The notes below the pieces were generated by a model, which did no database searches, was not told the origin of the DNA, and saw nothing but the letters and a program-made list of their open reading frames with translations. From Patescibacteria group bacterium (GTDB lineage: Bacteria; Patescibacteriota; Patescibacteriia; JACRDY01), in NCBI GenBank assembly GCA_041653535.1, contig JBAZFH010000002.1:173011-237010 (forward strand): 64,000 nucleotides of DNA. Direction: 5' to 3'. The position numbers and the translations under genes were made by a program. Position 1 is the first letter of the stretch, and the number at the start of each line of letters is the position of its first letter. This document shows, piece after piece, positions 3,519 through 19,705 of this stretch.

Positions 3519-3866
3519 TTATTTTTTACTCTCCTGGCGGATTTGCTCAAGCAGTCTTTCTACTTCTTGTGCCGCCATCGCTCCTCGGTCAATGCGAAAA
3601 GACAGTAGTGGGGTAAATTGCCAATCCAGTTTGGCAGCCAATAAACGGCGCAATTCTTTGACGCTATCGCGCAGCTTACCATAAACAATACCAATATTTT
3701 CTTCGGGGCTGACGGTTATCCAGATTTTGGCGGAGCGCAGGTTTGGAGATATTTGCGCGCGCAAAACAGTTACCAAAGAATCTTTTGGCAATTCGATCTC
3801 TCTTGCTATGATTTCGCTTAATTTGTCGCGCAGCACTTCTCCGGCGCGTTGGGCTCTATTAGACAT
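3519..3866 (-). CDS. rbfA: Ribosome-binding factor A.
   Basis: 115 aa, RAQRAGEVLRDKLSEIIAREI...LVTVLRAQISPNLRSAKIWITV, typical RbfA. Transcribed divergently from infB. Confidence 0.85.
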   Translation of the reverse strand: MSNRAQRAGEVLRDKLSEIIAREIELPKDSLVTVLRAQISPNLRSAKIWITVSPEENIGIVYGKLRDSVKELRRLLAAKLDWQFTPLLSFRIDRGAMAAQEVERLLEQIRQESKK

Positions 3867-13925: not shown

Positions 13926-13997
13926 ATTAGTATATAGTATATAGTATATACTATATAGTATAGAGTATAGAGGAAATTTACAAAAACCCTATATACT
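13926..13997. repeat. AT-rich TATAGTATA-type repeat block with a 16-bp inverted repeat, upstream of rnhB.
   Basis: TAGTATATAGTATATA (13928-13943) is the reverse complement of TATATACTATATACTA (13981-13996). Internal TATAGTATA iterations lie between them. Confidence 0.7.
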
Positions 13998-15009: not shown

Positions 15010-18000
15010 ATGAATGAATATAATCACCAAGAAATAGAAAAGAAATGGCAGAAGGTTTGGACAGGGCAAAATATTTATCGCACTCGAGAAGACAAGGGTA
15101 GACCCAAGTTTTACATTTTGGATATGTTTCCCTATCCCTCTGGTGTGGGACTACATGTTGGTCATCCCAAAGGATATATTGCTACTGATATTTTTGGTCG
15201 GGCTAAATCAATGCAGGGCTACAATGTGCTCCATCCCATGGGATGGGACGCTTTTGGCTTGCCGGCAGAAAACTACGCTATCCAAAACAAAGTTCATCCG
15301 CGCCAGGCGACAGAAGAAAATATCAAAACTTTCAAAAATCAGCTAGCCATACTCGGTTTCACTTACGATTGGGAAAGAGAAATCAATACTACTGACCCGG
15401 CGTATTACAAATGGACGCAGTGGGCTTTTATTCAGATGTTCAAAAAAGGTCTTGCTTACGAATCATACGAGCCGATCAACTGGTGTCCATCTTGCAAAAC
15501 CGGTCTAGCCAACGAAGATCTGGAAAACGGTCTTTGCGAACGTTGCGGTTCAGAAGTAGAACGTAAACCCATTCGACAGTGGGTGCTAAAGATTACCGAT
15601 TACGCCGACCGACTACTAAACGATTTGGAAAAATTGCCGGACTGGGAAGAGTCGATCAAAGAAATGCAGAGGAATTGGATTGGGAGGTCGGAGGGGGTAG
15701 AGATAGAATTTAAAATTAAAAATAATGGTGAGCAGCAGTATAACCCACCAATTAATTGGTGGGTTAACAGTGGTGACGGAGACGTTTGGTTTTTTGTTAC
15801 TTTCCCGACTTACAGCCGAGGTTTATTTTTTGAAGAGCAAGGTGAGGCTCAGAAAATAATCAATATTTTTGAGCAGATTGTTAAGGAAAAAAAATATCAA
15901 GTGGCAGATATCGCGGTTATGCCAGAGCACGTACACCTGCTTGTTAAACGCGGAAAAAAAGACGATTTGGAAAAGATTGTTAAAAACCTCAAAGGTATTA
16001 GTTCTCGTTTGTATGATCAAAGCGAGGAGCATTTATGGGCTAAAAGTTTTGAATACGAAACGATAGAGAACCAAGTAGATTTTGATAAGGTGATTAGTTA
16101 TTTACAAAATAATCCGATCAAGGCGGGTTTGCCAAAAGATGGTAGACTTTTATCCGAGTATCGGATGACTACGATTGGTGGGTCAGTCGACAGGATTAAG
16201 GTGTTTACTACTCGACCGGACACGCTCTATGGCGCAACTTATTTAGTATTGTCGCCGGAGTACGCGTGGTTAAACTCAGTGTCGCCGGAGTACGCGTGGT
16301 TAAACCACCAATTAATTGGTGGTTTAACCAATGCAGATGAAGTGGTGGCTTATATCGAGAAGACCAAGCAAAAAACCGATCTAGCTCGCCAGGCGGAAAA
16401 AGAAAAAACCGGCGTTGAGTTAAAAGGCATCAAAGCTATCAATCCGGTTAATGGCGACGAGCTGCCGATTTTTATTGCCGACTATGTTTTGTCCAGTTAC
16501 GGCACGGGAGCTATCATGGCAGTGCCAGCTCACGATGAAAGAGATTTTGAATTTGCCAAGAAATTTAACTTGCCGATCATTCCGGTTATTAAAGATGAGG
16601 ATAAAGATAAACGTGGAACAATTTTGGTTATTCATGGACTATGCGGAAATTCTAATGAAAATTGGTTTCCGTGGTTAAAAGATAATGCCCAAAAAATTGG
16701 TTATGAGGTTTTAGTCCCAGATCTACCAAATGCAGATGAACCAAAAATGGAAGAATGGTTGTCGGTTTTAGCTGGTCTAAAAGAAAAATTAGTTGGTGAG
16801 ATAATTGTAATTGGTCATAGTTTGGGCGCTGCAGTGGCTTGTAAATTTGTTGAAGAAAATAATTTGAAAATAAATAAGTTAATTTTAGTTGCGCCGACTG
16901 GGTCAAGTCAAGGTGAAGATAATTGGCAAGCGTTAAAAAGTGCTGGTGTAACAGATAGTGGCATTCAAGCAATTAAAGATTTTAACGGAGTGAAAATTGA
17001 TTGGAAAAATTTGCAAAGTTTAATCGAAAGTCCGTTTATTTGTATGTCAGACAATGATCCATATATTCCGTTGGAAGTTCAGAATGATTATAAAGGAATA
17101 AATCCGGCAATTAGAATATTTTCTAACTGCGGTCATTTTAATCAAAAAGCGGGTTTTATCAAGTTTCCTGAATTAATGGCGGAGATCATGGATGGGGCTT
17201 ATGTCGGCAAAGGTGGTTTGGTTAATTCAGGAGAATTTGATGGTATGGAAGTTGATGAAGCCAAGAAAAAAATTACTAAAAAAGTTGGCGGCAAACTGAC
17301 CGTCCAATACAAACTTCGCGATTGGGTGTTTTCTCGCCAGCGTTATTGGGGCGAGCCGATTCCGCTCGTCAAATGCGACAAATGCGGCTGGGTAGCAGTA
17401 CCGGAAAAAGATTTGCCGGTCGAGCTTCCTGATGTAAGATTTTACGAGCCAACCGGTACGGGTGAATCACCGCTAGCTAATATTACCGACTGGGTAAATA
17501 CCACTTGCCCGGAGTGCGGCGGACCAGCTAAACGTGAAACCAACACCATGCCACAGTGGGCTGGATCATCTTGGTATTATTTACGTTATATCGATCCGCA
17601 CAATGATACGGCGCTAGTCGACAAGAAAAAAGAAAAATATTGGTCGCCGGTTGATTTTTACGTTGGTGGAGCTGAGCACGCGACACGACATTTGATTTAC
17701 GCTAGATTTTGGCACAAATTTTTGTATGATATTGGCGCGGTAAATTATGATGAGCCGTTTAAGAGATTGCAACACGTTGGATTGATACTAGCTGAAGACG
17801 GTCGCAAGATGAGTAAGCGTTGGGGCAACGTGATAAACCCAAACGATATCGTCCGCGATTATGGCGCTGACGCCATGCGTGTTTACGAAATGTTTATGGG
17901 ACCTTTTTCGCAACCCTGCGCTTGGAGTACAGATGGGTTGGTTGGAGCTAGAAGATTTTTGGTTAAGATATGGAAATTGCAAGATAAAGTAAAGGAGACG

Positions 18001-18474
18001 GAAATTGAGAAATTAGAAATTAAGAAATTGGTTCATAAGACGATTAAAAAGGTTACCGAAGATATTGAAAACTTTAGGTTCAACACCGCTATCTCGGCGA
18101 TGATGATTTTGGTTAACGAAATGGAAAAGGAAGAAAGTATTTCAGCCGCCAATTTTCAATTTCTCATTTCTATATTATCTCCTTTTGCTCCGCATATCTG
18201 CGAAGAGTTGTGGCAAAAGCTTGGTCACATTGACAGTATTACTGTGCGGCCTTGGCCGAAATATGACGAGAAGCTGATTGTTGACGACGTTGTTAGCTTA
18301 GTCGTTCAGGTCAACGGCAAACTAAGAGAAAATATTGAAGTAGCAAAAGACATCACGGAAAAAGAAGCAACCGAGCTGGTGCTAGCAAGCGAAAAAATAC
18401 AGAAATGGCTAGAAGGGAAAACACCAAAGAAAATAATTTTTGTTCCGGGTAAATTAATTAATATAGTTGTTTAA
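15010..18474 (+). CDS. leuS: Leucine--tRNA ligase carrying two large in-frame insertions (HUH-transposase-like and alpha/beta-hydrolase-like).
   Basis: Class I motifs are present: PYPSGVGLHVGHP (HIGH), the NWIGRSEG zinc-domain end, FTTRPDTLYGATY (editing-domain start), AVPAHDERDFEFAKKF, NSGEFDG, RDWVFSRQRYWGEPIP and KMSKRWGN (KMSKS). At 1154 aa it is about 300 aa longer than typical bacterial LeuS. Confidence 0.9.
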   Translation: MNEYNHQEIEKKWQKVWTGQNIYRTREDKGRPKFYILDMFPYPSGVGLHVGHPKGYIATDIFGRAKSMQGYNVLHPMGWDAFGLPAENYAIQNKVHPRQATEENIKTFKNQLAILGFTYDWEREINTTDPAYYKWTQWAFIQMFKKGLAYESYEPINWCPSCKTGLANEDLENGLCERCGSEVERKPIRQWVLKITDYADRLLNDLEKLPDWEESIKEMQRNWIGRSEGVEIEFKIKNNGEQQYNPPINWWVNSGDGDVWFFVTFPTYSRGLFFEEQGEAQKIINIFEQIVKEKKYQVADIAVMPEHVHLLVKRGKKDDLEKIVKNLKGISSRLYDQSEEHLWAKSFEYETIENQVDFDKVISYLQNNPIKAGLPKDGRLLSEYRMTTIGGSVDRIKVFTTRPDTLYGATYLVLSPEYAWLNSVSPEYAWLNHQLIGGLTNADEVVAYIEKTKQKTDLARQAEKEKTGVELKGIKAINPVNGDELPIFIADYVLSSYGTGAIMAVPAHDERDFEFAKKFNLPIIPVIKDEDKDKRGTILVIHGLCGNSNENWFPWLKDNAQKIGYEVLVPDLPNADEPKMEEWLSVLAGLKEKLVGEIIVIGHSLGAAVACKFVEENNLKINKLILVAPTGSSQGEDNWQALKSAGVTDSGIQAIKDFNGVKIDWKNLQSLIESPFICMSDNDPYIPLEVQNDYKGINPAIRIFSNCGHFNQKAGFIKFPELMAEIMDGAYVGKGGLVNSGEFDGMEVDEAKKKITKKVGGKLTVQYKLRDWVFSRQRYWGEPIPLVKCDKCGWVAVPEKDLPVELPDVRFYEPTGTGESPLANITDWVNTTCPECGGPAKRETNTMPQWAGSSWYYLRYIDPHNDTALVDKKKEKYWSPVDFYVGGAEHATRHLIYARFWHKFLYDIGAVNYDEPFKRLQHVGLILAEDGRKMSKRWGNVINPNDIVRDYGADAMRVYEMFMGPFSQPCAWSTDGLVGARRFLVKIWKLQDKVKETEIEKLEIKKLVHKTIKKVTEDIENFRFNTAISAMMILVNEMEKEESISAANFQFLISILSPFAPHICEELWQKLGHIDSITVRPWPKYDEKLIVDDVVSLVVQVNGKLRENIEVAKDITEKEATELVLASEKIQKWLEGKTPKKIIFVPGKLINIVV
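15741..15766. repeat. Perfect 26-nt palindrome TAACCCACCAATTAATTGGTGGGTTA (left REP-like hairpin).
   Basis: Read directly. It is self-complementary across its whole length. Confidence 0.9.
16250..16305 (+). repeat. 26-bp direct tandem duplication (TGTCGCCGGAGTACGCGTGGTTAAAC, twice, 4-nt spacer) abutting the right palindrome.
   Basis: Copies at 16250-16275 and 16280-16305. The peptide SPEYAWLN is encoded twice in frame. Confidence 0.85.
16298..16329. repeat. Perfect 32-nt palindrome GGTTAAACCACCAATTAATTGGTGGTTTAACC (right REP-like hairpin).
   Basis: Read directly. It shares an 18-nt core with the left palindrome. Confidence 0.9.
16611..17202 (+). other. In-frame YdeN/RBBP9-like alpha/beta serine-hydrolase domain inserted in leuS.
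   Basis: ILVIHGLCGNSNENWFPWLKD...LPNADEPKMEEWL...IVIGHSLGAAVACKFVE (GxSxG nucleophile elbow)...ILVAPTG. Collinear with the B. subtilis YdeN serine hydrolase family (PF06821). Sits between the AVPAHDERDFEFAKKF block and NSGEFDG, where canonical LeuS has about 20 residues. Confidence 0.65.
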
Positions 18475-18969: not shown

Positions 18970-19671
18970 ATGCAAGCAGTGATACTAGCCGCCGGTCGTG
19001 GCGTACGTATGCAGCCTTTGACTTACGAAATACCAAAACCGATGCTCCGAGTGCAAGGCAAACCCATACTTGCTTACACCATAGATTTGTTGCCGGCAGA
19101 AATCGACGAAATTATTATTGTTGTTGGTTATCTCGGCGATCAGATCAAGGAATATTTCGGGCAAGACTACAACGGTAGAAAGGTTGTTTATGTCGAGCAG
19201 CAAGAACTGCTCGGTACAGGGCACGCATTGTCTTTATGTCGGGATATATTGCACGACAGATTTCTGGTTTTGATGGGAGATGATATATATTCTGCTGCCG
19301 ATATTCCGCGCTGTTTGGAGTACGAGCAAAGTATACTTGCCAAAGAAGTGACAGCCGAAGAAAAAAGAAATTACGGGGCGTTTGAAATAAACGACAAAGG
19401 AGATCTGATCGGTATTACCGAAAAAGAATTGCCGACCGGAGATAAGTTTTTGGTCAACACCGGTTTGTATGTACTAGACATGACATTTTTTGACTACGAT
19501 TTAGTCTCGATCAAAGACGGCAAAGAGTTTGGCCTACCGCAGACACTGGTGAATGTGGCCAAAGATCATCCGATCCGCATCGTGAAAACAGATTACTGGT
19601 TGCCGATAGGTTATCCTGATGATATCGAAAAAGCGGAGATATATTTGAGGAAAAATGGAGTGATTAGATAG
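18970..19671 (+). CDS. Sugar-1-phosphate nucleotidyltransferase (NTP_transferase family).
   Basis: 233 aa. The MQAVILAAGRGVRMQP...PKPML N-terminal G-x-G-x-R nucleotide-binding motif, then LGTGHA. Confidence 0.75.
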   Translation: MQAVILAAGRGVRMQPLTYEIPKPMLRVQGKPILAYTIDLLPAEIDEIIIVVGYLGDQIKEYFGQDYNGRKVVYVEQQELLGTGHALSLCRDILHDRFLVLMGDDIYSAADIPRCLEYEQSILAKEVTAEEKRNYGAFEINDKGDLIGITEKELPTGDKFLVNTGLYVLDMTFFDYDLVSIKDGKEFGLPQTLVNVAKDHPIRIVKTDYWLPIGYPDDIEKAEIYLRKNGVIR

Positions 19672-19705
19672 ATACTAGCCGCTAGCCGCTAGCGGCTAGT
19701 ATCTA
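19669..19705. repeat. Perfect 37-nt palindrome overlapping the stop codon of the nucleotidyltransferase gene.
   Basis: TAGATACTAGCCGCTAGC-C-GCTAGCGGCTAGTATCTA: 18-bp arms around a single central C. No adjacent U-tract. Confidence 0.85.

Follow-up and report, generated by a model that had tools for sequence, protein, structure and literature searches.

REPtrons consist of genes for RAYT enzymes (TnpA-REP, transposases associated with repetitive extragenic palindromic [REP] sequences) flanked by REP hairpins, and they include "TIRYT" forms that are flanked by terminal inverted repeats (PMC3333891, PMC3733652, PMC6006769). A conserved tetranucleotide, either GTAG or CGTC, lies at the foot of RAYT/REP hairpins (PMC3733652). 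Rickettsia palindromic elements (RPEs) are in-frame palindromic inserts in protein-coding genes (PMC10969869), and IStrons are selfish elements of essential genes that remain phenotypically silent and use an IS200/IS605-family transposase as their mobility module (PMC4227781). Here, we analyze a 64,000-nt stretch of DNA (the window) from a Patescibacteria group bacterium (assembly GCA_041653535.1; contig JBAZFH010000002.1, positions 173,011 to 237,010 of the forward strand). Its leucyl-tRNA synthetase gene, leuS, encodes an additional Y1/HUH endonuclease domain of the RAYT/IS200 kind, translated in frame and accompanied by two perfect DNA palindromes. We consider it somewhat probable that this is a RAYT/REP module which is translated as a passenger domain of LeuS, in a hinge that tolerates insertions.

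The searchable literature yielded no description of an in-frame RAYT or Y1 domain in an aminoacyl-tRNA synthetase (aaRS). The authors of a phylogenomic survey of HuH enzymes state that they set aside proteins of unexpected length, regarding them as fusions or errors (PMC6006769). An earlier first-pass annotation of the window, made from the sequence alone, had stated that it knew of no described equivalent of the arrangement. For an in-frame RAYT, we likewise found no precedent, but in-frame palindromes taken alone do have one in the RPEs of Rickettsia.

The host gene occupies positions 15010..18474 of the window (+ strand) and encodes 1154 amino acids (aa). Its frame is open over all 1154 codons, as the first-pass annotation had read it, with a GC content of 41%. 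A Pfam scan of the product recovers the expected LeuS domains together with Y1_Tnp and Ser_hydrolase, and alignments place the N- and C-terminal cores in a clade of Patescibacteria LeuS that we term clade Q. Aligned against insert-free LeuS, the protein has ~157 extra codons (aa 239-395; 15724..16194, + strand) that follow the strand "..EIEFKIKN" and precede "RIKVFTTRPDT". This position, termed site A, is the hinge between the catalytic core and the CP1 editing domain. In insert-free relatives, only ~12 residues separate NWIGxSEG from FTTRPDT. These results bear out the original reading of about 150 extra residues between NWIGRSEG and FTTRPDT and support their in-frame translation as part of LeuS.

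We find that the insert is indeed a Y1/HUH domain, of the RAYT/IS200 kind. Its core (aa 263-368; 15796..16113, + strand) matches PF01797 (Y1_Tnp) with an E value of 2.4e-15; the score of 57.2 bits clears the cut-off of 23, and the match spans positions 10-121 of the 121 in the profile. The best-matching curated model in NCBIfam is REP_Tyr_transpos (RAYT, NF047646), at 76.2 bits against an equivalog cut-off of 80, while the NCBIfam IS200 model scores 54.7 bits against an equivalog cut-off of 55. The HUH codons (H-V-H) lie at 15928-15936 and the codon for the catalytic tyrosine, within ISYLQNNP, at 16099-16101. A profile built from eight relatives matches ISDra2 TnpA (E = 1.8e-13). In this alignment, the HUH motif of the insert falls on "VMPDHVHLL" of ISDra2 and the tyrosine of SYLQNNP on that of "QKYIE", which is replaced in the structure of the Y132F mutant (PDB entry 2xo6). 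Among the eight relatives, H69, H71, Y126, N130, and P131 are invariant across in-frame and free copies; the HUH, Y-I-x-x-N-P, and G-R-I-L-S motifs are kept by all in-frame and free copies.

Structure prediction agrees with the profiles. An AlphaFold2 (AF2) model of the insert, based on a 60-sequence alignment, reaches a pTM of 0.74 with pLDDT >90 over the core, and the predicted fold matches that of HUH enzymes (strand-helix-strand-strand-helix-strand-helix). Every one of the top 30 Foldseek matches in the PDB is a Y1 transposase, among them TnpA-REP in complex with a REP hairpin (4er8; rmsd 3.2). The Y1 transposase domain proposed by the first-pass annotation is thus supported by profiles, by the conserved HUH and tyrosine residues, by AF2, and by Foldseek. 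In the model, pLDDT falls below 50 for the peptide encoded by the left palindrome and for the C-terminal tail of the insert, which suggests that these segments may be flexible linkers. We also compared the insert with that of another LeuS carrying a Y1 domain, P0121. Between the two Y1 cores, pN (the proportion of nonsynonymous differences) is 0.26, with the synonymous proportion, pS, saturated at 0.80; the N- and C-terminal LeuS cores of the same pair have pN values of 0.29 and 0.32. The domain has a pN as low as that of the LeuS cores and is therefore constrained as a protein, under purifying selection.

The architecture is not a one-off: three further leuS loci and two ileS genes have it as well. 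An exhaustive HMMER search with the insert against 1.84 billion representative proteins returned 1141 relatives. Among the 150 of these 1141 matches listed, most are 114-301 aa long, the size of a free-standing Y1 gene, and seven have the Y1 domain inside a larger protein: two in LeuS (P0121 and P0155), two in other class-I aaRSs, and three in restriction-modification proteins. A further LeuS-borne copy, in locus L132, was recognized from gene context. In the query and in loci L043, L044, and L132, Y1 sits at the same LeuS hinge ("..xVxFxV" / "xxVFTTRPDT"), and the inserts of L044 and L132 are ~27-34% identical to that of the query. The two class-I aaRSs (L125 and L126) are IleS according to NCBIfam, and their Y1 domains score 81.3 and 86.3 bits with the RAYT model, above its cut-off of 80. 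In the restriction-modification proteins, Y1 is in frame in a Type ISP restriction enzyme, a Type I specificity subunit, and an Eco57I-type methyltransferase (P0153, P0186, and P0237). The four LeuS copies belong to independent assemblies, which excludes an assembly artefact as the source of the architecture itself. A metagenome scan with an alignment of three inserts gave at least 80 loci; among the matches listed, all are ORFs of ≤343 aa with 25-38% identity, and no new in-frame copy was found.

Several features of these copies deserve mention in their own right. The IleS copies have a palindrome between the NLKGISS helix and the LW motif of Y1 (L125 2222-2255; L126 2296-2325). In L125, a gene of the 23S_rRNA_IVP family (PF05635; 579-947) lies immediately upstream of the ileS gene, whose product carries Y1, His_Phos_1, and GNAT inserts. 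In the gene for the Eco57I-type methyltransferase, a perfect palindrome of 24 nt follows the Y1 domain, 144 nt further downstream (L127 2081-2104). Several free-standing Y1 proteins (P0128, P0149, P0167, P0173, P0219, and P0255) contain repeat-like low-complexity inserts between HUH and the I-K-G helix, and translated repeats inside Y1 ORFs seem to be common in this subfamily. The leuS of L044 has one in-frame TAA after CP1, at 3830-3832 ("VVEG*KTDSG...SEFLDGL"), beyond which the frame runs on into the next called gene. Its position coincides with a second LeuS insertion site, site B. This leuS could be a pseudogene or encode a split LeuS, or else the TAA could be read through or be a sequencing error.

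Two palindromes accompany the query domain. The first, P1, is a perfect 26-nt palindrome (TAACCCACCAATT followed by AATTGGTGGGTTA; 15741..15766) that forms the left-end hairpin of the module. It is translated as NPPINWWV, and as single-stranded DNA, it folds with -11.3 kcal/mol (z = -4.7). The second, P2 (TGGTTAAACCACCAATT followed by AATTGGTGGTTTAACCA; 16297..16330), is translated as WLNHQLIGGLTN in a frame that differs from that of P1, and folds with -16.3 kcal/mol (z = -5.9). Overall, the hairpins of this set have single-stranded folding energies of -11 to -19 kcal/mol, with z scores of -4.7 to -7.5. Both palindromes reported by the first-pass annotation are therefore real, but P2, given there as 32 nt at 16298-16329, is a perfect palindrome of 34 nt. 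Nor do the two bracket the insert, as had been proposed: P2 lies ~100 nt beyond its right end, within CP1, after FTTRPDT...LSPEY. When P0121 is compared with P0291, a close relative that lacks the insert, the insertion at the hinge is seen to be clean, and P2 stands in place of ~13 native CP1 codons, with only one codon gained on balance.

A 10-nt half-site, ATTGGTGGGT (16174..16183, + strand), marks where the insert really ends on the right; it is identical to the right arm of P1 and translated as TIGG. It is possibly the remnant of a right-end hairpin, and it is not seen in L043. Beside P2 lies a perfect 26-nt direct repeat, TGTCGCCGGAGTACGCGTGGTTAAAC (16250..16305, + strand), with copies at 16250-16275 and 16280-16305, a spacing of 30, and a TCAG spacer. 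The repeat adds 10 codons (SPEYAWLNSV), its second copy overlaps the left arm of P2, and it is absent from L043. It may have arisen by slippage at the hairpin, or be a footprint or an assembly error. We considered TCAG as a common tetranucleotide after right arms, since it follows both the half-site and the first repeat copy, and rejected it: it is not conserved in L043, L044, L130, or L132.

The 18-nt core that P1 and P2 share occurs only twice in the window, and none of 100 shuffles gave any match. Within coding sequence of the window, no perfect hairpin other than P1 and P2 has a stem of 10 or more. Its only other long perfect hairpins are at 13931-13957, an AT-only hairpin just upstream of an rnhB-like ORF, and at 19669-19705 (TAGATACTAGCCGCTAGC...), a 37-nt hairpin that begins at the stop codon of the gene at 18970-19671 and is probably a terminator.

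We find that the hairpins are maintained at the level of nucleotides. In L043, P1 and P2 are both present at the same protein positions. P1 of the query agrees with that of L043 at 27 of 28 positions, while the insert as a whole has a DNA identity of 61%, and P2 is conserved with two compensatory changes. At the P1 position, L044 has a 34-nt perfect palindrome (CTGTTAACCGGGGGTTT followed by AAACCCCCGGTTAACAG) and L132 one of 30 nt (GTTAACCGCGCCCTT followed by AAGGGCGCGGTTAAC); each has a different stem, with the outer GTTAAC in common. The IleS-borne palindromes, GATTTAACCCACCAGTTAACTGGTGGGTTAAATC in L125 and GTTAACCTACCACCTAGGTGGTAGGTTAAC in L126, are of the same family and lie inside the Y1 domain. 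Across nine hairpins, several of which were found by a palindrome scan while the P1 copies are positionally homologous, 94.9% of cells pair and 9 of 13 pairs change on both sides, a result reached by none of 500 shuffles. P1 (VNPPxNWWVN) and P2 (LxHQLxGGLT) are translated in different frames, and the constraint is therefore on nucleotides.

As in RPEs, palindromic DNA is here carried in frame as an extra peptide of an otherwise functional protein in a reduced genome. RPEs differ in being ~150 bp long and multi-copy and in having no enzyme, whereas the query palindromes measure 26-34 nt, are private to the locus, and accompany an enzyme that would be expected to recognize them.

The nearest free-standing relatives of the domain are Y1 genes flanked by the same hairpin family, which makes the analogy with REPtrons drawn by the first-pass annotation an apt one. 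In locus L130, a unit of ~590 nt has the order A-B-Y1-B'-A', with the hairpin pairs inverted, and its A hairpin (CCCGGCAAT...ATTGCCGGG) matches P1 except for compensatory stem changes. In L128 and L129, a hairpin-flanked Y1 gene overlaps the start of leuS by ATGA. In L132, a free Y1 gene with left and right hairpins lies between der and a leuS that also holds an in-frame copy. Two of the three nearest free-standing Y1 genes are directly upstream of leuS; the contig of the third does not extend far enough to decide. The order der(-), Y1(+), leuS(+) is conserved (L128 1501-2136 / 2133; L129; L132 2501-3088 / 3121). Several hairpins lie within the called ORF of the free-standing Y1 or abut its stop (L132), and in-frame and free copies interleave in the identity matrix.

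The locus thus resembles REPtrons in several respects: the enzyme is a single Y1/HUH domain with RAYT as its best profile, at a borderline score; the GC-rich hairpins vary from copy to copy, apparently in step with the Y1 that each accompanies; P1 stands at the left end of the query Y1, with P2 and the half-site to its right; the free relatives in L130 and L132 have hairpins on both sides, inverted as pairs in L130; and the module is apparently single-copy. Unlike a REPtron, the query enzyme and its hairpins are translated inside an essential aaRS, with no gene of their own, and are not extragenic. There are also no further copies of the REP family in the window. Reading of the sequences abutting P1, P2, and their homologues found no GTAG/CGTC tag; the hairpins instead share the outer motif GTTAAC, and a GACG occurs 9-15 nt 3' of P1 only. 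The likeness to IS200/IS605 elements (TnpA of IS608 and ISDra2; PDB 2a6m, 2xm3) lies in the same fold and catalytic motifs and in left and right subterminal hairpins. The ~590-nt free unit of L130 is also IS200-sized, IS200 being ~700 bp long. Here, however, the query scores just under the IS200 cut-off, no multiple copies were found, and neither element ends nor a target tetranucleotide are identifiable. In addition, the right hairpin is in host coding sequence, so that two-ended excision would destroy leuS.

The distribution of the insert among LeuS proteins is patchy. The first-pass annotation had left it to an alignment with close relatives to say whether the insert is specific to its lineage, and we find that the nearest relatives of the query and of P0121 all lack PF01797, with more than 100 closer LeuS in each clade being without the insert. 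The first ~75 CP1 codons next to the insert (CP1a; aa 396-470; 16195..16419, + strand) resemble P0121 and a second clade, clade P, by both identity and bootstrap. The N-terminal core of the query (aa 1-233) is 80% identical to clade Q, 54% to clade P, and 56% to P0121, and its C-terminal core (aa 801-998) is 83, 50, and 53% identical, respectively. The corresponding values for CP1a are 54, 59, and 70%. CP1a of the query also has the one-residue deletion of clade P ("DLAR-QAEKEKTG"; "DLxR-Q"). Clade P is favored over clade Q in 0.984 of bootstrap replicates for CP1a and in 0.000 for both cores. These comparisons give moderate support to a mosaic query leuS, in which CP1a was likely transferred together with the insert. 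Exchange of the insert and adjacent CP1 between leuS alleles is, with moderate confidence, favored over vertical descent with many losses.

A recurrent site in a conserved essential gene, a patchy distribution, and signs of flank co-transfer are also characteristics of inteins and IStrons. The query module differs from these elements in that it stays in the protein as an extra domain and is not removed. Pfam detects no Hint/intein family in LeuS, and the window contains no group I intron or any other Rfam family at gathering scores. An intron or IStron reading was accordingly rejected, there being no Rfam match over the whole window.

Patescibacteria LeuS proteins are tolerant of insertions more generally. 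Many of them (P0002-P0120 and P0271-P0388) have foreign domains at three recurrent sites, the site A hinge included. These domains are Ser_hydrolase, NUDIX, ASCH, PDDEXK_3, PF10706, PF14907, and a methyltransferase. Ser_hydrolase is found at all three sites, in different proteins, and this pattern suggests domain shuffling within leuS. The query itself has a second insert, a Ser_hydrolase/alpha-beta hydrolase domain (PF06821, E = 8.8e-19; aa 538-723; 16621..17178, + strand), at site B after the CP1 core; it is unrelated to the Y1 module and shares with it the same insertion-tolerant host. NCBI gives the whole query LeuS the product name "alpha/beta fold hydrolase", a mis-annotation. No perfect palindromes flank the Ser_hydrolase or ASCH inserts of leuS, and hairpins are therefore not a general feature of LeuS inserts. 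In P0035, a PDDEXK_3 nuclease domain at the same hinge as Y1 is flanked by an in-frame, 42-nt imperfect inverted repeat that is 74% complementary (L042 1203-1244 and 1645-1686). Here leuS may hold another type of translated element that combines a nuclease with inverted repeats.

We propose that the insert is a module of the REPtron type, in which a RAYT-like Y1 endonuclease and its cognate hairpins occupy the surface hinge that leads from the LeuS core to CP1. The module has no start, stop, or promoter of its own and would therefore be expressed only as a passenger domain of LeuS, with its hairpins translated as short linkers. LeuS probably tolerates it because the hinge accepts foreign domains in many Patescibacteria. 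The module would persist and spread by exchange between leuS alleles, with the insert travelling together with adjacent CP1 sequence. Y1 may still bind and nick its hairpins in single-stranded DNA, as the intact catalytic set and the maintained hairpins suggest, and such nicking, rather than plain homologous recombination, would be what promotes transfer. Lateral exchange is supported by the sequence comparisons; the transposase may drive the movement.

Several observations weigh against this proposal. L044 and L132 have the left hairpin only, and canonical two-ended excision is therefore impossible there. In the query, P2 takes the place of native codons, with essential CP1 sequence between it and the insert; recombination between P1 and P2 would shift the frame and delete FTTRPDT. 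Excision between P1 and P2 as a way of restoring leuS was accordingly rejected: their spacing of 560 nt (524 in L043) equals 2 modulo 3, and FTTRPDT would be lost. We identified no excision junction, no target-site signature, and no GTAG/CGTC tag. There is no second copy of Y1 or of the hairpins in the 64-kb window, and the exact 18-nt core has only scattered single copies in 185,579 species-representative genomes, a set that does not include the source genome. A widespread identical REP was likewise rejected as a candidate; the 18-nt core gave 39 single-copy matches, many with terminator-like flanks and none in leuS. The der-Y1-leuS order is common to L128 and L132 despite a Y1 identity of only 37%, and this looks like long, stable residence, possibly domestication, and not active hopping. 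Last, the mosaic signal comes from about 50-64 alignment columns and one indel.

A broader version of the proposal would see these modules as a distinct class of selfish element, "in-frame REPtrons". Y1 and its hairpins would colonize permissive hinges in genes for essential class-I aaRSs (LeuS and IleS) and in restriction-modification genes, would be expressed only by read-through of the host ORF, and would spread from allele to allele by hairpin-directed nicking of single-stranded DNA, with repair copying the flanks, in the manner of an intein that does not splice. We offer this extension tentatively and think it rather more likely to fail than to hold.

Among the alternatives, the one that survives best holds that Y1 and its hairpin were recruited for a LeuS-linked host function and are now immobile and selected by the host. 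Such a function could be autoregulation through the hairpin in its own gene or mRNA, or nucleic-acid binding tied to the handling of tRNA-Leu. The equal strength of purifying selection on Y1 and on the LeuS core fits this idea, as do the single copy of the insert in the window and the retention of only one hairpin in L044 and L132. The nearest free Y1 lies directly upstream of leuS, overlapping or abutting its start, and the der-Y1-leuS order holds across divergent genomes, which also speaks for a host role. However, more than 100 closer LeuS relatives per clade manage without the insert, its distribution is patchy, and the host gene is a mosaic. The module also occurs in IleS and in restriction-modification genes, away from any role specific to LeuS, and it keeps the full catalytic set of a DNA-cleaving enzyme. 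On this evidence, we judge recruitment by the host to be unlikely, albeit a serious competitor.

Less probable still, and in our view improbable, is that the insert is an inert relic, which entered an ancestral leuS in frame once, long ago, and has since been passed on by vertical descent with many losses and tolerated as filler. Its presence at the same site in LeuS clades that are only ~50% identical, and the saturation of synonymous sites between copies, would be expected of such an old insertion. Filler, however, would not keep HUH, the tyrosine, and N-P invariant or pN as low as in the LeuS core, and it would not keep perfect palindromes by compensatory changes; CP1a of the query groups with the other clade, and very many independent losses would be needed. 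An assembly chimera or a pseudogene, with an artefactual insert and palindromes or a broken leuS, is very improbable: the 30-nt duplication beside P2 in this contig only and the in-frame TAA further down the leuS of L044 would fit it, but the frame is open for 1154 codons, the same architecture is present in three independent assemblies from other samples, and the insert is under purifying selection.

By definition, RAYTs and REPs are extragenic and are separate genes. In the arrangement that we favor, a RAYT/REP module carried as a translated passenger of LeuS, enzyme and hairpins are coding sequence of an essential translation enzyme, and the combination recurs in LeuS, IleS, and restriction-modification genes. 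Perfect palindromes and compensatory changes inside an ORF point to selection on nucleotides atop selection on the protein. The locus is also a natural experiment on the amount of foreign protein that the hinge from an aaRS core to CP1 can bear. If the domain is active, it would represent a means by which a DNA element that has no promoter, start, or stop of its own could survive in very compact genomes, and it would provide a route by which new domains enter essential proteins.

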